A stretch of DNA of 63,995 nucleotides, the filler included, from Malassezia furfur (lineage: Eukaryota): the NCBI GenBank assembly GCA_052055015.1. It is 8 parts of 8 records of this genome, joined end to end, with 100 filler letters (N's around TTAATTAATTAA, not from the genome) between each part and the next. Parts side by side here need not be neighbours in the genome. Positions count along the whole stretch, not along the records: positions 58,541 to 63,995 come from JBQJIT010000599.1; 7 more parts are not named here. The stretch is one strand, 5' to 3'. Under the pieces are notes generated by a model, which made no database searches, was not told where the DNA came from, and saw nothing but the letters and a program-made list of their open reading frames with translations. Numbering within the stretch: position 1 is the first letter of the stretch; each line of letters opens with the position of its first letter. The translations under genes were made by a program, and so were the position numbers. Below are positions 76 through 63,995 of this stretch, one piece after another.

Positions 76-2408
76 ATGGATGGTGATTTGATTCAAGTTG
101 TGAATAGGCTGCAAGAGACGTTTACTGCGATCGGCGGGCACAGTGTGGATTTGCCACAATGCGTCGTCGTCGGGTCGCAGTCGTCTGGCAAGTCCAGTGT
201 GCTGGAGACGTACGTGTGCGCTGTACTGACCGCAGGATCGTGGGCCGGGACTTTTTGCCGCGAGGCAGTGGGATTGTGACTCGCCGCCCGCTGGTGCTGC
301 AGTTGATCCATGTGCCGTCGACGGACGGCGCGCGCATGCAGCCGGAGGAATACGGCGAGTTTCTGCACCTCGATCGCCGCTTCACCGACTTCGCGTCGAT
401 TCGCAACGAGATTGAGAACGAGACGTTCCGTGTGGCGGGGCAGAACAAGGGCATTTCGAAGCAGCCCATCCACCTGAAGATCTACAGCCCCAATGTGATC
501 AACCTGACGCTTGTTGACCTGCCCGGTCTGACCAAGATCCCGGTGGGCGACCAGCCGTCGGACATTGAGCGCCAGATCCGCTCGCTGGTGACCGACTACA
601 TCTCGAAGCCGAACTGCATCATTATGGCCGTGAGCCCGGCAAACGTCGACCTGGCTAACTCGGACAGCCTGAAGCTCGCGCGCAGCGTCGACCCGCAGGG
701 GAAGCGAACGATTGGTGTGCTCACCAAGCTCGACCTGATGGACTCGGGCACGAACGCGCTCGACATTCTGACCGGGCGCATCTACCCGCTGAAGCTCGGG
801 TTCGTCGGCGTGGTGAACCGTTCGCAGCAGGACATCAACAGCAACGTGCCGCTCGACATGGCTCGGCGCAGCGAGGAGGAGTTCTTCCGGTCGCACCCCG
901 CGTACCGTAACATTGCGCACCGCTGCGGCACCAAGTTCCTGGCCAAGACGCTGAACCAGGTGCTCATGAGCCACATCCGCGACCGCCTGCCCGACATGAA
1001 GGCGCGGCTCAACACGCTCATGGGCCAGGCGCAGCAGGAGCTCGCGTCGTTCGGCGACGTGGCCTTCATGGGCCACGAGCACCGCGGCACGCTTATCCTG
1101 AAGCTCATGACGCAGTTTGCGCGCGACTTCGTGGCGTCGATCGAGGGCACCTCGTTCGACATCTCGACCAAGGAGTTGTGTGGTGGCGCGCGTGTCTACT
1201 ACATTTTCCAGGACGTGTTTGGCCAGGCGCTCGGCTCGATCAACCCCGTGCAGAACCTCACCGTGCAGGACATCCGCACGGCGATCCGCAACTCGACCGG
1301 CCCGCGCCCCAGCCTGTTTGTGCCCGAGGCTGCGTTCGAGCTGCTGATCAAGCCGCAGATCAAGCTGCTCGAGCCGCCGAGCCTGCGGTGTGTCGAGCTG
1401 GTGTACGAGGAGCTGATGAAGATCTGCCACAACTGCACCAGCACCGAGCTGCAGCGCTTCCCGCGCCTGCACGCCCAGCTCATCGAGGTCGTGTCGGATC
1501 TGCTCCGCGAGCGCCTCGGACCCACGTCCGAGTACGTGCAGAGCCTCATCGACATCCAGGCCGCGTACATCAACACGAACCACCCGACCTTTGTGCAGGA
1601 CTCGGCGTCGATCGCCATGCACATGCGCGGGGCGCCGGCCAAGCCGCTCGCGGCGCCCAACAAGCCGCCGCACCACGAGACGTCGGTTGACTCGGACGTG
1701 GACGTGAGCAATGCGCCGTCTGAGGACGAGTCGGAGCACGCGCGGAGCACGCGCACCGTTGCTGTGAACGGCGCGCACCGCGATGCGCCCGCGTCGCACT
1801 CGCGCCCTGGTGCTAGCCGCACGCGTCCCCACGAGGCGGGCGACGCCGGGGGCGATGCGCTCGGCCCCAACGGCCAGCGCGAGTCGTTCCTGAACTACTT
1901 CTTCGGCGGCCCGAGCAGCCTGCCGCTGCACGAGCCGAGCGGGAGCGCGTCGAGCTTTGGGCTGCACACGCGCCTCGGGGAGCAGAAGCCCAACCTGCTC
2001 GCGGGCCGGGGTGGCCTCGAGGGCAGCAGCGCCGCATTCGACATGAAGAGCCTGGACTACTACCTGCAGTCGGACTCGATCCCGGACGACGAGCGCGCGC
2101 TGTCGGAGCGTGAGGCGGTCGAGGTGAACCTGATCCGCCAGCTGATCACGTCCTACTTCAACATTGTGCGCCTCTCGATCCAGGATCTCGTGCCCAAGGC
2201 GGTGATGCACCTGCTCGTCAACTTCTCGCGCGACACGGTGCAGAACCGGCTGGTGATCAACCTGTACAAGGAGAACCTCTTCGAGTCGCTGCTGCACGAG
2301 AATGAGGCGCTCACCAAGGAGCGCCAGCGCGTCCAGGCGCTGCTCGACGCGTACAAGGAGGGATTCAACGTTTTGTCCGAAATCACATTCAAGCCTACGA
2401 GTACATAG
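76..2408 (+). CDS. DNM1: Dynamin-related GTPase for mitochondrial fission (intron 210-235)
   Basis: [10 protein letters not shown]-loop, [21 protein letters not shown] and a C-terminal GED; a 26-nt GTACGT..CTGAC..CAG intron joins the two ORFs in frame. Confidence 0.92.
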
Positions 2409-2446
2409 GGTATAGAATAGGCCCCGCATCGTGCCTCTGCACCCGC

Positions 2447-3544
2447 TCAGCGCGCCTTGCGCCGCTGCGACCGCATCGCTTTCTTGAAGCGGTGCGCCGA
2501 CGCCGAGCCGGACACGAGCTCGTCGCCCCGGCCGGCGTCGCTGCGACGCGCGACGCGTGGCTCGTTCCGCGGTGCCTTGGCCGCGCGCTTGGCGAGCAGA
2601 TCGTACGCGCCCTCGCCACGCTCGCGGCGGCGCGCATCACGCTCGCTGCCACGCAGCAAGTCGCCAAACTCTTCCTCGATGCCGCCGCCAATTCGGTCCT
2701 TGTGCGCCGAAAGCCCCAGGCCACCGAGCGCCACGTCCTGCTCGTCGCGGCGCCGGCGCTTGGCGTCCTTCTTGGACATGGACAGACGCTTGTAGTTGTC
2801 CTCCTCGAACTCTTGCATGCGCTGCAGCGCACGCGCACGCGACGAGCCTGCCGTACCAACGGCACCGCCGCCGACACCCGCCGTGGACGTCTCGTACGGG
2901 TTCGTCGACATGCCCGCGGTGAGATCCGCCAGAAGCGCCGCATTGCGCGACGGCTGGCGCTCGCGGTTGCGCGCATTGCGCGACGGGCGCGCATCGGGGT
3001 CGTACAGCACCGGCGCCACTTTGGGCGGCTTGTACGTCGCGCCCTCCTCCTGCTCCTCGTCCTCGTCATCGGCGGCGCGCCCGGGCGCGGCACCTGCGGA
3101 GGCGAGCGCCTCAGGGTTCGGCCGGAATGCCAGTGGGTCGATCTCATCGTCCTCCGGCAGCGCCTTGTCGGCGGCGCTCGCGGCCTGGAGCAGCTTCTCG
3201 ACCTGGTACTTGATGCGCGTCTCCATCGGCCGCATTTTTTCCAGGACCAAGCGCAGCTTCACGAGACGCTCAACATACTCGGTACCCACTTCGTCCGTCA
3301 GTGACTTGCCCGACACGCGATGCGCGCACAGGAGCGCCATGTGGTGCAGGTATGCGAGCAGCGCATCGACCTTGACGGTGAGCAGTGAAAGGCCCTCAGG
3401 AAACTCGAGCTGCTTGTTCTCCGAGCTGCGTGAGCGTGACACGTACGCGTCCTTAAGCTTATCGATCTGCGGCCGCACCTCCTGGAGGCTATTGCCGATC
3501 GCCGCGCCAAGCGCTGCGACTTCGCTGCCGAGCGTACTCGCCAT
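2447..3544 (-). CDS. LCP5: U3 snoRNP/SSU processome protein Lcp5/neuroguidin (Sas10/Utp3/C1D family)
   Basis: EGLSLL.VK..LL.YL, RLVLEKMRPME..IKYQVEKLL, DPLAFRPNP, YKPPK motifs. Confidence 0.88.
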   Translation of the reverse strand: MASTLGSEVAALGAAIGNSLQEVRPQIDKLKDAYVSRSRSSENKQLEFPEGLSLLTVKVDALLAYLHHMALLCAHRVSGKSLTDEVGTEYVERLVKLRLVLEKMRPMETRIKYQVEKLLQAASAADKALPEDDEIDPLAFRPNPEALASAGAAPGRAADDEDEEQEEGATYKPPKVAPVLYDPDARPSRNARNRERQPSRNAALLADLTAGMSTNPYETSTAGVGGGAVGTAGSSRARALQRMQEFEEDNYKRLSMSKKDAKRRRRDEQDVALGGLGLSAHKDRIGGGIEEEFGDLLRGSERDARRRERGEGAYDLLAKRAAKAPRNEPRVARRSDAGRGDELVSGSASAHRFKKAMRSQRRKAR

Positions 3545-8337: not shown

Positions 8338-8437
8338 NNNNNNNNNNNNNNNNNNNNNNNNNNNNNNNNNNNNNNNNNNNNTTAATTAATTAANNNNNNN
8401 NNNNNNNNNNNNNNNNNNNNNNNNNNNNNNNNNNNNN
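8338..8437. other. Artificial contig spacer
   Basis: N44-TTAATTAATTAA-N44, a six-frame stop linker. Confidence 0.99.
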
Positions 8438-16767: not shown

Positions 16768-16867
16768 NNNNNNNNNNNNNNNNNNNNNNNNNNNNNNNNN
16801 NNNNNNNNNNNTTAATTAATTAANNNNNNNNNNNNNNNNNNNNNNNNNNNNNNNNNNNNNNNNNNNN
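16768..16867. other. Artificial contig spacer
   Basis: N44-TTAATTAATTAA-N44. Confidence 0.99.
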
Positions 16868-25136: not shown

Positions 25137-25236
25137 NNNNNNNNNNNNNNNNNNNNNNNNNNNNNNNNNNNNNNNNNNNNTTAATTAATTAANNNNNNNN
25201 NNNNNNNNNNNNNNNNNNNNNNNNNNNNNNNNNNNN
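25137..25236. other. Artificial contig spacer
   Basis: N44-TTAATTAATTAA-N44. Confidence 0.99.
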
Positions 25237-33488: not shown

Positions 33489-33588
33489 NNNNNNNNNNNN
33501 NNNNNNNNNNNNNNNNNNNNNNNNNNNNNNNNTTAATTAATTAANNNNNNNNNNNNNNNNNNNNNNNNNNNNNNNNNNNNNNNNNNNN
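33489..33588. other. Artificial contig spacer
   Basis: N44-TTAATTAATTAA-N44. Confidence 0.99.
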
Positions 33589-50134: not shown

Positions 50135-50234
50135 NNNNNNNNNNNNNNNNNNNNNNNNNNNNNNNNNNNNNNNNNNNNTTAATTAATTAANNNNNNNNNN
50201 NNNNNNNNNNNNNNNNNNNNNNNNNNNNNNNNNN
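50135..50234. other. Artificial contig spacer
   Basis: N44-TTAATTAATTAA-N44. Confidence 0.99.
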
Positions 50235-56688: not shown

Positions 56689-56885
56689 TGTGTGGGTATT
56701 CTAGCAGGGTTACGCGCAATATGAAACGTCAGCAACGAGTGGTCTCCTAGCTCTGTTCGTCGATAGAGCCCCGCGAACTTGCCGCTGCACCAGGCGGCCA
56801 AAGCGCGCAGCGTGGCGTTTGCCCTCCACCCACGTTGGCCACCATCCAAAAGTTTGCGCTTCGGCAGTGGACTGCAGCGACGCGA

Positions 56886-58440
56886 ATGACGGATACGCGC
56901 CGACTATGGCACGCGTCCCTAAGCACGCCGCTGTATGTGTGTGCATTGCCTAAGTCGATTGTCGACACGGTACAGCTACGGAGTGCAGACGCCGCTGAGG
57001 AAGAGGCCAAGGAGGCGAAGAAACCTTTGCCTTCCGAAGCGCCGGCCGCTGCGCGCCCTGCCGAGGCTCGCCGCGGCGCAGGCATCCCCGCCTGCACCGT
57101 ATGCCCAGGGTGTGAGCCGTTTGCGTCGCTAGGCGAGCAGCGCGCACACTTTCGCAGCCTGTGGCACCGGTACAACCTGGTGCTCAAGCAGCGCGGCGGC
57201 GCTGCTGCACTTGTGACGCAATCCGAGCTCGATCGGCAGTGTGCCGAGATCGAGGAGGAGGACGAGCTGGAAGATACCGATACGCTGACGGCGCTCCTGG
57301 ATCGCCTGGACCTGCACTCGGCGCCGCCCGGCCAAGCCGACGAGCCGGGCCAGAGCCGCGCGCAGGCGGTTCAAGACGCGCTGCGCTCGCCGCTCGTGTG
57401 GTTCGAGAGCCGTGCGGATGCGCCGGAAGATGCGCGGCTCGAGCAGACCCAGCTTGGCGTGTACCGTGATGTGCTGACCTCTGCGACGGCGACGCCGGCG
57501 ACCGACGCTGCGTCGGCGGTTGCGGCGCTGAAGGCGCTCCAAGCCCCTGTCCTCACCATGCAGCCCACAAAGCAAGGTTGGACGGGCAAACGGCTGCAAG
57601 GCACCAAGCATGTTGGCCGCGCGATGCAGCTTGACATTCTGGACGGTGCCAGTCTGCTTCCCATGCTTCTGGGCCATGCGGATCTGTACGACGATGCATC
57701 GACCGACGAGACGACGAGCGAGTCGGACACTTCGTCCGACAACGAAGGTGAAGGCGAGGTGGCGCCCAGCGCGCGCACTAGCGCGCCGCCCGAGCCGCCC
57801 ATCGCACTCCCCCCGCTGCGTCTGTGGACCTTTATCATGATGGGCGGCGGCCACTTTGCCGCGGCGGTCGTGGCGCTGAATGCGTATTCGCCGCCGCTCT
57901 CGGAGCGCGCCCAGAACCGCGGCACAAAGCAGCAGCGTGGCATCGTGGTGCTGGCGCACAAGACCTTCCACCGGTACACGACGCGGCGCAAGCAGGGCGG
58001 GGCACAGTCCGCGCACGACACGTCTGGGCGCCATGCCAAGAGCGCGGGTGCGAATCTGCGTCGCTACGGCGAGGCGCAGCTGCGCAACGACATCCACAAG
58101 CTCCTGGGCCGCTCGGGGTGGCGGTCGCTGATCGAGCGCTCGGAGCACGTGTGGGTGCGTACCAGCATGCGTGCCGCCAGCGGCGTGCTGTGGCACTGGC
58201 CGAACGCCACGAGTCCGCTGGATGCCCCGTACGAAAACGGCACGCTTTCGCACATTCCCATCCCGACACAGCGCCCCGCGATTGGCGAGATCATGCGGTG
58301 CTTCTTGGAGCTGACGCGCGTCAAAGTCGCGCACCTTACCGCCGAGCAGCTCGCGGCGCAGGACGACGCACAGCGCGAGGCGATTGCTGCAGCGCTGCGT
58401 GCGGATGCGGCACCGGCGCCGGCGGCGCACCCTCCGCGCA
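56886..58440 (+). CDS. VMS1: Vms1/ANKZF1 ribosome-quality-control factor; 3' end cut by gap
   Basis: C2H2 finger (HFRSLWHRYNL), GGHFAA, HKTFHRYTTRRKQGGAQS, SAGANLRRY. Confidence 0.9.
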
Positions 58441-58540
58441 NNNNNNNNNNNNNNNNNNNNNNNNNNNNNNNNNNNNNNNNNNNNTTAATTAATTAANNNN
58501 NNNNNNNNNNNNNNNNNNNNNNNNNNNNNNNNNNNNNNNN
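58441..58540. other. Artificial contig spacer
   Basis: N44-TTAATTAATTAA-N44. Confidence 0.99.
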
Positions 58541-61373
58541 CCAAGAAGGGAGGTTCGCAGCTCGCGCAGCTCCGCTCGGGGCTGCGCGACGCCGGGGTCA
58601 CCACCAGCAAACCAAAGAAGGGCAGGAAGGAGGACAGGGACGACCGCGTGGGGCAGTACCGCCGCGAGCAGCGCAAAAAGCGGCTCGACGCCCTCATGTC
58701 CTCCCTGAACGCATTCGACGAGCGCACCGCGCGCGCCAAGAACGACGTACTCGGGCGCAAGGTCAAGGGCACGACGGGGCGCCCGGGTGCATCCAAGTCG
58801 GACGCGATCCAGCTGCGCCGCGAAAAGCTCCTCCCGGAGCTCGACGCGCGGCACCGCTCGTCGTCGTTCGTCGACCGCCGCTTTGGCGAATACAACCCGC
58901 ACCTCTCGGTGGAAGACAAGATGCTGCAGCGTTTCACGCACGAGCGGCAGAACCGCACAGGCAAGGCGTCGCTCTTTGACCTGAACGACGACGACGAAGA
59001 GGCGGGTCTGACGCACTATGGCCAGAGCCTCAGCGGCCTCGACGAGATGCCCGATGTCATGCACGAGGACGACGAAGAGCACGGTACGTATGCCCGCACC
59101 CGGGGCGCGCCAAGGATGATCCGACGAAACAACGTCTATACCGAAGGAGCCGACAGGCTATGCCGGGTAAAAGTTCTACTGGAGATTGCTGAGGCGTCGC
59201 CCGTGCGGCTGGGAACTGGCTGACCACAGGCAACATGGACGCCTACGAGACGCAGGGGCACTTTGCGGGCTTTGCCGAGGGCGAGGGCGAGCGCAGCAAG
59301 AACGAGGTCATGAAGGAGATCATCGCCAAGTCGAAACTCGCCAAGGCCGAGCGCCAAAAGGTCAAGGACGCCGACGACGAAATGCGTATGGAGCTCGACG
59401 AGGAGCTCGGCGATATCCGCTCGCTGCTCTTCTCGCAGAAGCGCGAGGAGCAGGAGGAGGAGGCGCCCAAGGCGCCCGCGCCGGACGACAAGAGCGAGGC
59501 GTACGATGCGTTTGTGCGGGAAATGGCGTTTGAGCGCCGCGCACGGCCACAGGACCGGCTCAAGACCGCCGAGGAGATCGAGGAGGAGCAGGCCAAGCGC
59601 CTGCGTGATGCCGAGGCCGCGCGCCTGCGGCGTATGCTTGGCGAGCCGGACGAGGAGGAGCAAGATACCCACGAGGAGGAAGAGGTGACGGGGCGCATGC
59701 GCTTTGGCCTGGGCGAGGGATTGGAGGCCCGGGGGGCGAGGGCGATGCGGGACGACGACGAGGAGGGGGATGAGGAGGGCGACGAGGACGACGAGGACGA
59801 GGACGAGGAAGACGATGAGGACGATGAGGACGACGAGGAAGAGGAGGAGGAGGAGGAAGGGGAGGAGTCCGACTCCGACTCCGACGCGTCGCTCTCGCGC
59901 TTTGAGCGCCACCTCGACGCGGCCGAAGAGACCGCCCCCGGCCGGCACCGCGCGCTGCCGAAGCGCGCCGAGGTCCCGACGCTGCCCTTCACCTTCCCGT
60001 GCCCCAGCACGCACGACGAGCTGCTGGACCTGCTCGAGGAGCATGCCGTGCAGCCGTCGCAGCTCCACACGGTGGTGAGCCGCATCCGCACGCTGCATGC
60101 GCCGCACCTCGACGAAAAGAACCCCGAGCGGCTGCAGCGGCTGCTGGGCGTGCTGATCGACCACCTGCTGTACCGCGCGAGCCAAGCGGCGGGCGGCGAC
60201 GATGTAGCCGACGTCGTGGTGATGAACGACCTCCTGCTGCACATTGCCGAGCTCTCGAAAACATACCCCGCGCGCAGCGCCGAGCACTTTGTCGCGAAGC
60301 TCGCCATGATGCAGCGCAACCTCACGCGCGGGCTGAGCCGCGGCCCACTGGAGCGCACCTCGCACACCTGGCCGGCCCTGCCCGAGCTGTGCCTGCTGCG
60401 CGCCGCCGGGATCGTGTGGCCGACGAGCGACCGCTGGCACCCGGTCGCAACGCCGCTTGCGCTGCTTATGGCGCAGTACCTCGCGCACGCACGCATCCGC
60501 TCGCTGGAGGATGTGGCCGCGGCGCTCTACCTCGTCTCGCTGCTGGCGTCCGACCAGCGCACGAGCCGCCGGCTGGTGCCCGAGGCGCTCAACGTGCTCT
60601 ACTCGGTCGTCGCGATCCTGCTCCCGCCGCTGCGCGCCAAGGGCACGGCGCCGGCCAAGGCGCTCGCCGAGGCGTTTGGCATCCCGACGCCGGACGTCGG
60701 TGCGCCGCACACCGCCGCCCTGGCGCTGCGGGAGGACGCGGCGCCGGCGACGCCCGTGCACCTCGTGCCGCTGCTCGCGCACGCGCCCGACACGGCGCAG
60801 ACGCGTGCAGACTTGCTCGGCGTCGCGGTGCAGCTCCTGGCGACCTGGGCGCAGCTCTACGCGCCGAGCCCGGCGTTTGTGGAGCTCTTCACCCCCGCGG
60901 CCTTTTTGCTCGAGGTCGGTGCGGCGCACGTGCGGGGCCCGCAGCCGCGCATCGGTGCGTACCTGGGCGACGCGGCGCACGCGCTGCGCGCGCAGCTCGA
61001 GCGCGCGGTGCGCGACCGGCGTGCGCTGCGGCTGCAGGCGCACCGTGCGCTGTCGATTGCGTCGTACGCGCCCAAGTTCGACCAGCAGGGCTTCGACCCG
61101 AAGCGCGCGACCGATCCCGTCGCGGAGCGTGCGCAGAACGCCAAGCTGCGTGCGCTGCTCAAGAAGGAGCGCAAGGGCGCCATCCGCGAGCTCCGCAAGG
61201 ACGCGCAGTTCGTCGCCGAGGCGCGCGAGCAGCGCCGCGCCGAGGAGGACGCGGCGTACAAGCGCAAGATCGACAAGATCACCCATGGGCTCCAAGAGGA
61301 GCGCTCCGAGGAGAAGCAGCTCGACCGCGCCAAGGCGACGCTGCGCAAGCGCGCGGGCAAGCGCGCGACATAG
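58541..61373 (+). CDS. NOP14: Nucleolar protein Nop14; 5' end cut by gap (intron 59084-59229)
   Basis: DRRFGE, LTHYGQSL, RSKNEVMKEIIAKSK, KTAEE, TSDRWHPV, KKERKGAIRELRKD. Confidence 0.93.
59108..59206 (+). ncRNA. Candidate intronic box C/D snoRNA guiding 25S rRNA 2'-O-methylation
   Basis: Box C-like AGGATGA (59113-59119), box D CTGA (59199-59202), terminal stem, 15-nt guide GTTCTACTGGAGATT complementary to the LSU rRNA segment AAUCUCCAGUAGAAC (recalled). Confidence 0.8.
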
Positions 61374-61435: not shown

Positions 61436-62375
61436 ATGGTGCGCCGACGCCGCTCACGCAGGTGACCAAGCCGTCGAAGACCGCCGTCGCGCAGCGGTTC
61501 GTCGCCGTGACGGGCGCGAGCGCCACAGAGGCGCAGCAGTACCTGCGCGAATCCAACTACCGCCTCGAGGCGGCCGTCGACGCCTACTTTGCGCGGCAGA
61601 GCGCCGCGCCACGGCTCTCGGCGACGCAGGAGCGCGAGGCGACCGCCGCACTCCACGCCGTGTTCGACGCGTACCAGGGTACGTCGCTGGCTCACACCCA
61701 GACCCGGACGGGGAACCCGACACCATCACCGCCGAGGGCGCGCTCCGCCTGTTTGGCGACCTCGGCGTGGACGTCGCAAGTGTGTCGGTGCTGCCGCTGT
61801 CGTACTACCTCGACGCGCCGTCGCTCGGGCACTTTACGCGCACAGGCTTCACCGAGGGCTGGCTGCGCCTCGGCCTGGGCCCCGCGCTCGTGGGGCGCCC
61901 GCCGCCCGCCGAGGTACTCGCCGAGATGCGGCGCGCCGTGCCGCCGATCGACGACGCCTTCCGCACCAACGGCCCGGTGCTCCCGCCGCGCGCACCGGGG
62001 CAGGCGGCGAGCAAAAAGGGGCTGTATACCACCGTGTACGAGTACACGTTTGTGTTCGCGCGCGGCGAGGGCCAAAAGAACCTGCCCGTGGACGTGGCCC
62101 TGACGTTCTGGGACCTGCTCATCCCCTACGCGCCCGCGTACGACGCCGAGGGCACGCGCGGTGCGGCGCCGAGCTTTTCGGCGCGCCAGTATGCGCTATG
62201 GAAACAGTTTCTGACCGAGGCCGCAAACGTGCGCATCATCTCCAAGGACACCTGGACGCAGTTCCTCGAATTCACGCAAGAGATCGACCCGCACTTTGCA
62301 ACGCACGATTTCGACGCCGCATGGCCGTCGCTCATCGACGAGTTTGTCGAGTGGGCACGCAAGCAGGAGACATAG
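61436..62375 (+). CDS. DCN1: Defective in cullin neddylation protein 1 (introns 61439-61461, 61679-61701)
   Basis: UBA-like N-terminus; YEYTFVFAR..GQKNL, ISKDTWTQ, AAWPSLIDEFVEW. Confidence 0.92.
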
Positions 62376-62442
62376 AGCTTTTACACGATGGTATACAACA
62401 GTGGGTATTCGGCACGGCAAACCAACTCCATCCCCGCGCCGC

Positions 62443-62738
62443 TCACGCCTCCGCCTCGGCGAGCTCGCGCACGTACAGCACGTTGTTGCATCTGCGTCAG
62501 CGCGCACACCTACCGGATGAACACCTCGCCGAGCGTGCCGTTCGACTTGCCGTCTTGGAGCTCTTCGGTGTTGGCGAGCTGGAAGTTCATGTAGTTGTCG
62601 GTGCTCACCAAGAACCCCTTGTACTCCAGGCCCCACTTGAGGCGCACAAGCACCTTCTTTCCGATCTGCTGCTGGAGGAACGGCTTGGGGTTCACGGGAT
62701 AGTCCTGCATCAGCGCGCGCTCATCCACCTACCGGCAT
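62443..62738 (-). CDS. SMX3: Small nuclear ribonucleoprotein F (introns 62705-62732, 62492-62513)
   Basis: [40 protein letters not shown]. Confidence 0.95.
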
Positions 62739-62849
62739 GGTCGTCGCCAAACGCAGACGCGGCGCACGTGGCGGCACGTGGCCCTCGCCGCGACACGATC
62801 GCGAAGGCTTCGTGCGGGGGGACCGAGCGCAGCGCGCTCCGCACTCGCG

Positions 62850-63995
62850 ATGTCCGCGCGCGAGGAAGAGGCGGCGGCGCCCATGACGCGCGCCGCTCAC
62901 ATCCGCGGGCCGCCGTGGCTGCGCTCGCCCATCCTCACCCTCGGCCACTGGGGGTCGCACTTTGTCTGGTCGATCCTCAACGCGCGCGCGGCGCTCTTTC
63001 TCATGCGACTCGGCATCCCCAAGAGCGTCACGTCCGTGGTGCTGATGGCGGGACCACTCAGTGGGCTGTTTGTCCAGCCCATCGTCGGCATCCTGTCGGA
63101 CCACTGTGCCAGCCGTTGGGGACGCCGCCGCCCCTACATTCTCGGCGGCCTGCTGCTGTGCCTTGCGGCGCTGCTGTGCCTCGCCGTGGCCAGCAACATT
63201 GCGCGCATCCACAGCACGGTGTCGTCGCTGCTTGCGATCGTGCTCGCAGTCATCGGCATCGTGAGCATCGACGTGTCGGTCAACACGCTCTCGGCGGCGC
63301 ACCGTGCGCTCCTGCTCGACATGCTGCCCGCCGACGAGCAGGATTGGGCGAACGCGTGGGCGACGCGCTTCAGCAGCCTGGGATCCGTGTCCGGCTACCT
63401 GCTGGGCGACATGGACCTGTCGAACGGTTTGGACCTCGACCAGCTCAGCGTGCTGACCCTGTCGGCGGCGGTGCTGCTCGTCCTGACCCACCTCGGGCTG
63501 TTTGTGCTGATGGACGAGCCGGTGGGCCACGAAATGCCGCCAGATGCACCGACATCGCTGTACGGCCGCGTACGCGACCTCGTCCTGCACTTTGTCGAGA
63601 CGAGCCGCGTGCTGCCGCCGGCGGTATGGGACCTGTTCCGCATCCAGTTCTTTGCGTGGCTCGCATGGTTCCCCGTGCTGTACTATAGCTCGGCGTGGGT
63701 CGCCGAGATCTACCGCGCGGCGCACCACCTTCCCAGTACCAAGCTGACCGAGGCCGCGCGCCGCGAGGGCAGCTTTGCACTGCTGTGCCATGCGCTCATG
63801 GCGCTCGTCGCCTCCATTGTCCTGCCGTTTTGCCTGCACGGAGTGCTGCCAGGTGCCCACGGCGGCGCGCACCGCTATACGCGCGCGCCCACGACCGTGT
63901 GGTCTGCGGAGGACGACGAGGCGCCCAACGGCAAGGTGCCCGACGACGAGGCGCGCGCTGCACGGCTCGTGCGCCTCGGCCGGCGGCGCGTCGCC
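62850..63995 (+). CDS. SUT1/SLC45-like (GPH family) glycoside transporter; runs off the window
   Basis: AGPLSGLFVQPIVGILSD..SRWGRRRPYI, IQFFAWLAWFP; not in the ORF track. Confidence 0.85.
   Translation, partial: MSAREEEAAAPMTRAAHIRGPPWLRSPILTLGHWGSHFVWSILNARAALFLMRLGIPKSVTSVVLMAGPLSGLFVQPIVGILSDHCASRWGRRRPYILGGLLLCLAALLCLAVASNIARIHSTVSSLLAIVLAVIGIVSIDVSVNTLSAAHRALLLDMLPADEQDWANAWATRFSSLGSVSGYLLGDMDLSNGLDLDQLSVLTLSAAVLLVLTHLGLFVLMDEPVGHEMPPDAPTSLYGRVRDLVLHFVETSRVLPPAVWDLFRIQFFAWLAWFPVLYYSSAWVAEIYRAAHHLPSTKLTEAARREGSFALLCHALMALVASIVLPFCLHGVLPGAHGGAHRYTRAPTTVWSAEDDEAPNGKVPDDEARAARLVRLGRRRVA

Follow-up and report, generated by a model that had tools for sequence, protein, structure and literature searches.

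In the fungus Malassezia furfur, the 146-nucleotide (nt) intron of the gene NOP14 is proposed to encode a conserved box C/D small nucleolar RNA (snoRNA) of about 90-100 nt (~59103-59202) that would direct 2'-O-methylation of the cytidine equivalent to yeast C2682 in 25S ribosomal RNA (rRNA). The intron is located in a stretch of 63,995 nt, filler included, from assembly GCA_052055015.1, referred to as the window and used for all coordinates below. Judging from the sequence comparisons described here, we place the probability of this explanation at roughly 0.8, with higher confidence in the identity of the element as a box C/D snoRNA, and lower confidence in the methylation of C2682, than in the explanation as a whole. 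By every sequence criterion tested, the element is a box C/D snoRNA: it shows a variant box C, a box D, a terminal stem and an antisense segment of 15 nt that ends 1 nt upstream of box D. An initial annotation of the window had already read the intron as host to a box C/D snoRNA with a guide for 25S rRNA, and this reading is now strengthened by eight homologues in the same NOP14 intron and by a terminal stem that covaries among them.

The NOP14 intron is genuine, with both of its flanks matching the Pfam Nop14 family and the two reading frames joined in phase 1 via a Gly codon (Table 1). The elements that the initial annotation quoted from it are all present, namely the 146-nt intron, box C, the stem strands, the guide followed by one base and CTGA, and the CCGA at 59141. 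Three positions given there for the 3' half of the intron were 10 too high: box D is found at 59189-59192 (not 59199), the strand GGCGTCGCCC at 59193-59202 (not 59203-59212) and GTGCGG at 59203-59208 (not 59213). In the minimum-free-energy (MFE) fold of the intron, the closing stem is formed.

Recurrence of the element in NOP14 introns

A metagenome scan with a 19-letter pattern, composed of 14 of the 15 guide bases, one unspecified base (N) and CTGA, returned 40 loci. Scored with a covariance model that was derived from an alignment of the candidates, eight of them proved to be full-length homologues, scoring 105-113 bits (92 bits for the window). At the remaining 32 loci, just the 19 letters of the pattern match (18-21 bits); these loci are unrelated, and many are bacterial-looking or AT-rich repeated genes. 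The homologues fall into three lineages: L019, L026 and L036, which are identical in the region shown; L027, L029 and L042, together with the close variant L039; and L049. All eight are flanked on either side by sequence that tblastn matches to the NOP14 exons of the window (68-73% identity for one exon, 55-58% for the other), and in each an intron starting with GTACGT interrupts the gene at an identical point, in phase 1 within a Gly codon that follows an acidic stretch. Because the element is found again, complete, in this NOP14 intron of other organisms, its features go beyond what chance would produce. A comparison of NOP14 introns had been recommended as a check on the snoRNA; in the homologues of the three further lineages, the box C core and the stem are conserved.

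The alignment holds five distinct sequences from four lineages, a small sample from which the structure itself was drawn. The GATGA core of box C is invariant in all five (AGGATGA, AAGATGA, ACGATGA), and G59173, the 5' extension of the guide that was not part of the search pattern, is likewise retained in each. An internal motif, GGC[C/T]ATGCC[A/G]G, is found in all homologues. The base between guide and box D varies freely (G, T, A, G), and the box-C-side region of the window is, by alignment, unrelated to that of the other lineages. Evidence on the terminal stem comes from the five base pairs (bp) beside the boxes, which are paired in 25 of 25 cells of the alignment, with four of the five pairs changed on both sides. 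The compensatory changes comprise C-G/G-C, G-C/A-U and C-G/U-A/U-G/G-U. Among 500 column shuffles, one equalled the score of the actual stem, and when the structure is displaced by 1-3 columns, only 8-44% of the cells are paired. Covariation of this kind is the pattern predicted for a functional terminal stem, though the sample is small.

The guide and its predicted target in 25S rRNA

The window itself contains no rRNA, and the match of the guide was computed on fungal-type large-subunit (LSU) rRNA fragments. To obtain these, eukaryotic LSU rRNA was sought in a collection of prokaryote genomes, where eukaryotic contaminants are expected, by way of a 24-nt LSU motif that the initial annotation had quoted. 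The motif is indeed one of eukaryotic LSU rRNA: the 17 contigs that matched it all belong to Rfam family RF02543, and the expansion-segment sequences flanking the motif are of several different kinds. Six of the LSU fragments extend to the 3' end, and each of these six contains exactly one copy of the reverse complement of 59173-59187. For numbering, we assumed a length of 3396 nt for Saccharomyces cerevisiae 25S rRNA. Fragments L016 and L017 fit the yeast numbering, with the right base at 12 of 12 known 2'-O-methylated (Nm) positions, as compared with 2-5 of 12 in shifted registers; 11 of the 12 positions used are confirmed in Table 2 of PMC11542601. In this register, the D+5 base of the guide, G 59184, faces C2682 (context cagaaatCtcc in L016), and the earlier assignment of the D+5 target to the C of AAUC is thus upheld and given a number. 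The Rfam consensus has the C2682 equivalent as a conserved (upper-case) base on the 3' strand of a hairpin in domain V, beside a 7-nt loop. By arithmetic from the Escherichia coli helix limits, this hairpin is probably helix 84 of domain V, near the central protuberance.

The mechanism we suggest follows general C/D snoRNA biology. The snoRNA would be transcribed within the NOP14 pre-mRNA; Snu13, Nop56, Nop58 and fibrillarin/Nop1 would assemble on the kink-turn made up of box C, box D and the terminal stem; and the RNA would be freed by splicing, debranching and exonucleolytic trimming. The 15-nt guide is then predicted, from its complementarity to the fungal-type LSU fragments, to pair with 25S 2679-2693 on the 3' strand of the domain V hairpin, and fibrillarin would 2'-O-methylate C2682, the equivalent of plant Cm2683 (Cm, 2'-O-methylcytidine), in accordance with the D+5 rule.

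The methylation status of this cytidine differs among organisms. In Table 2 of PMC11542601, C2682 is absent from the yeast and the human sites, and its absence from the yeast column agrees with the initial annotation, where the target was thought not to be a standard S. cerevisiae site. The same table records the same cytidine as Cm2683 in Arabidopsis, Cm2686 in tomato, Cm2685 in tobacco and Cm2429 in Pyrococcus abyssi, and in it the Arabidopsis numbers of flanking sites exceed those of yeast by one (2620/2619, 2641/2640, 2792/2791). In Table S1 of PMC8583080, the sequence around Arabidopsis Cm2683 reads AACAGAAAU-Cm-UCGUGUGGA. With the same C following the same loop, and with the +1 offset found at the flanking sites, Arabidopsis Cm2683 is the equivalent of yeast C2682. 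RiboMethSeq placed the Arabidopsis site on the map for the first time, with At5gCDbox136.1 as its assigned guide (PMC8583080); in tomato and tobacco, methylation at the same cytidine was seen by cryo-electron microscopy. Among the Neurospora crassa guides in Table 1 of PMC2780460, those for Um2682 and Um2687 correspond to U2724 and U2729 of yeast (offset -42), and none is listed for C2640, the C2682 equivalent. The main text of The fungal snoRNAome (PMC5824354) makes no mention of the C2682 position.

On the box C side, the initial annotation had proposed a second guide, ACAACGTCTATA, placed before the CCGA. This proposal is not sustained: the segment shows no complementarity of at least 8 nt within LSU 2247-3396 (1150 nt), and it is unconserved in the homologues. 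The internal region also lacks complementarity of at least 8 nt to the 25S regions of 2619 and 2724. The internal motif is conserved in the alignment and, in the fold of the window's intron, belongs to an internal hairpin, but no UGAUGA-like or CUGA-like internal box is conserved; the motif may represent a degenerate C' region. Further candidates were set aside. The best internal match of the window, AGGAGCCGACA against 2873-2883 (11 bp including one G-U), has no D'-like box after it, is unconserved and stands at about chance level, and the box-C-side region of three homologues gave, against the rRNA just 5' of the target, only 9-nt runs with G-U pairs, which are too weak. In L049 (2059-2111, minus strand), an 11-bp complementarity to LSU 2811-2821 around G2815 is accompanied by a sub-threshold snoR38 match (18.7 bits, E 1.3). 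It could be a lineage-specific second guide, though it is probably chance; the putative D' letters are part of the matching stretch, no other lineage has the match, and we have taken it as chance. Since a recognisable and conserved second guide is missing from the box C side, the element is read as a single-guide snoRNA.

Some observations on the guide and on the rRNA fragments are recorded in addition. The CTG of box D could also pair with the rRNA immediately 5' of the guide target, in the window (59184-59192) as well as in the homologues, and in L019 the base between guide and box D pairs too, resulting in 19 contiguous complementary positions. This extended complementarity may be a hint at the origin of the guide, or a coincidence. 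The 17 prokaryote assemblies concerned (L001-L017) contain short contigs of eukaryotic, fungal-type LSU rRNA, evidently contaminants. One of them, L008, and the metagenome contig L027 have sequencing-adapter-like tails; in L004, a 5S rRNA gene is located downstream of the LSU gene on the opposite strand.

Layout of the window and of the intron

The window consists of eight pieces of ~8.3 kb each, with seven identical 100-nt spacers (N44-TTAATTAATTAA-N44) between them. As the window is a concatenation, genes flanking any spacer are not necessarily neighbours in the genome. The piece bearing NOP14 starts at 58541, and the first codons of the gene, along with its true upstream neighbour, are outside the view. 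Upstream of the last spacer, a long open frame on the plus strand (56751-58440), its 3' end cut by the spacer, carries the Pfam domain bVLRF1 (PF18826, E 4.6e-45), a release-factor domain of the Vms1/ANKZF1 kind. Downstream of NOP14, an open frame of 725 amino acids on the plus strand (61511-63685) has no Pfam match at E<=0.001. A crude and noisy scan of the window for splice signals and open reading frames (ORFs) yielded 32 intron candidates, among them short ones of 22-53 nt and many long ones. Two long candidates starting with GTACGT were inspected, and they have the appearance of coding sequence or of a mis-assigned donor, not of real long introns.

Table 1. Features of the NOP14 region, of the intronic element and of the spacers (window coordinates)
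Feature	Position	Strand	Remarks
NOP14 upstream exon	58541..59083	+	Pfam PF04147 Nop14, E 4.2e-50, profile positions 4-133; 5' end cut by spacer
Spliceosomal intron, 146 nt, phase 1	59084..59229	+	donor GTACGT, branch-like GCTGAC 59219-59224, acceptor CACAG
Outer stem, 5' strand CCGCAC	59094..59099	+	pairs with 59203-59208; found in window sequence only
Terminal (inner) stem, 5' strand GGGCGCGCC	59103..59111	+	MFE fold; 59107-59111 are the five bp common to all homologues
Box C, variant AGGATGA	59113..59119	+	sequence
Box-C-side region up to internal motif	59120..59155	+	includes earlier D' guide candidate and CCGA 59141-59144; unconserved
Internal motif GGCTATGCCGG	59156..59166	+	3' strand of internal hairpin
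Antisense guide GTTCTACTGGAGATT, 15 nt	59173..59187	+	complement of LSU rRNA 2679-2693 (yeast numbering)
Box D, CTGA	59189..59192	+	one base (G 59188) between guide and box
Terminal stem, 3' strand GGCGTCGCCC	59193..59202	+	MFE fold, covariation
Outer stem, 3' strand GTGCGG	59203..59208	+	MFE fold
NOP14 downstream exon	59230..61373	+	PF04147, E 1.2e-193, profile positions 149-862; ends at stop codon; ORF 59193-61373
Spacers	8338-8437, 16768-16867, 25137-25236, 33489-33588, 41822-41921, 50135-50234, 58441-58540		

Alternative explanations and relation to known guides

Several points weigh against a conserved snoRNA guiding methylation of C2682. In the alignment, the columns of box D and of the guide (14 of its 15 bases) are conserved by construction of the search pattern, and a search of this type could not count NOP14 orthologues without the element or with a changed guide. 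Position 2 of box C is G, A or C throughout the lineages, never the usual U. Several positions of the target stem are variable among eukaryotes (lower-case in the Rfam consensus), so that pairing with the organism's own rRNA is a prediction, backed by the conservation of the guide. For the intron as a whole, the fold energy is unexceptional given its G+C content (z-score -0.48), and folding statistics thus prove nothing by themselves. At the gathering threshold, no Rfam 15 family matches the window, and within the intron even a limit of E<=10 brings no match, while the homologues L029 and L049 show only sub-threshold, generic C/D matches (10-19 bits, against cut-offs of 39-60). In a rival reading, boxes and rRNA complement would be a chance resemblance in a G+C-rich intron, for which one can cite the missing Rfam match, the variant box C, the unexceptional fold energy and the 32 unrelated loci among the 40, which imply that the 19-mer by itself does arise by chance. 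With the entire element at the same NOP14 intron position in three other lineages, and with compensatory changes in its stem, a chance origin is effectively refuted, and we leave it hardly any probability.

Function of the conserved structure could nonetheless be a different one. The stem might mainly be an aid to splicing that, in an unusually long intron, shortens the distance from 5' splice site to branch site, no stable guide RNA being formed. In the window, the ends of the helix made by its strands (59094-59111 and 59193-59208) do lie within ~10 nt of the donor (59084) and of the branch-like GCTGAC (59219); but neither the invariant GATGA/CTGA pair, nor a 15-nt exact rRNA complement one base before CTGA, nor the conserved internal motif would be needed for that purpose, and the spacing from stem to branch site differs among the homologues, all of which makes a mainly splicing role quite improbable. 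Another alternative accepts a real C/D small nucleolar ribonucleoprotein and has it act mainly as a folding chaperone at the 25S hairpin, or methylate a neighbour of C2682. Its appeal is that the target constitutes the 3' strand of a hairpin stem, which pairing must open, that complementarity in L019 runs on through the intervening base and the CTG of box D, and that no fungal methylation map with C2682 was found, the yeast column of the table cited above being empty at this site and the N. crassa table having no guide for C2640. We nevertheless consider a chaperone, or a shifted site, unlikely. The D+5 rule is very general; exactly one base separates guide and box D in all five aligned sequences, though this is fixed by the search pattern; and it is the very same cytidine that is methylated in three plants and an archaeon. 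A snoRNA guiding the methylation of C2682 is the explanation we prefer.

Within the library searched, no description of the element turned up, be it as a C2682 guide, as a Malassezia or basidiomycete snoRNA or as a NOP14-intronic snoRNA, and the snoRNA is probably uncatalogued and missing from annotation. A more far-reaching statement would be that a lineage of basidiomycete-like fungi, made up of the window's organism and the three metagenomic lineages, employs an uncatalogued NOP14-intron snoRNA, its box C never with U at position 2, to install a Cm of the plant and archaeal type in the domain V hairpin of 25S rRNA, at a site unmodified in budding yeast and human and lacking a guide in N. 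crassa; to this whole, built from sequence comparison, we would give about even odds. For a fungal group whose snoRNAs are poorly charted, the element contributes a conserved snoRNA gene that is probably unannotated, together with one predicted site of rRNA methylation. Surveys like The fungal snoRNAome were seeded from ascomycete snoRNAs, and such a family would consequently be missed by them. The snoRNA as cargo would account for one long intron amid very short ones, and the explanation makes a testable prediction, that is, Cm at the yeast-C2682 equivalent in dependence on the NOP14 intron. Overlap with a plant and archaeal site offers a small, clean data point on the recurrence of methylation sites across kingdoms; if the plant and fungal guides are non-homologous, the same cytidine would have been recruited independently in plants, these fungi and Pyrococcus. 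The understanding of how box C/D guides act is left unchanged, the gene being of a fairly ordinary kind in a well-understood class.

As regards known systems, NOP14 acts on the small ribosomal subunit, whereas the guide hosted by its intron is aimed at large-subunit rRNA. Residence in a conserved intron of a ribosome-synthesis gene has parallels in snR59/snR39, hosted by RPL7 at an intron position that 82% of fungi conserve, and in snR191, hosted by NOG2, for which the figure is 72% (PMC8476143). These share with the element a conserved intron position in such a gene, an intron-poor, short-intron fungus as the setting, and an intron that is long for the sake of its cargo; they differ in their host genes and targets, and NOP14 is absent from the main text of PMC8476143. 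The yeast box C/D guides snR67 (CD_26), which serves 25S G2619 (D') and/or U2724 (D), and snR51 (CD_6) act on the same part of domain V and have the nearest known 3' sites, Um2724 and Um2729, whereas the predicted target of the intronic element, C2682, lies 42 nt upstream of 2724; with its different target, the element is neither of the two. A relationship to snR67 had been considered initially, on the idea that the target adjoins Um2724, and was discarded once numbering by L016 and L017 gave C2682; the 2724 target is itself known to shift between snoRNA families across fungal lineages (The fungal snoRNAome, PMC5824354). The nearest functional relative is Arabidopsis At5gCDbox136.1 (AtsnoTAIRsnoRNA40), a box C/D snoRNA whose assigned target is this very cytidine, located after AACAGAAAU (PMC8583080), a likeness that rests on the shared target nucleotide. 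Downstream of this C, the target reads UCGUGUGGA in the plant as opposed to TCCAGTAGA in the fungal fragments, and the two guide sequences must therefore differ.

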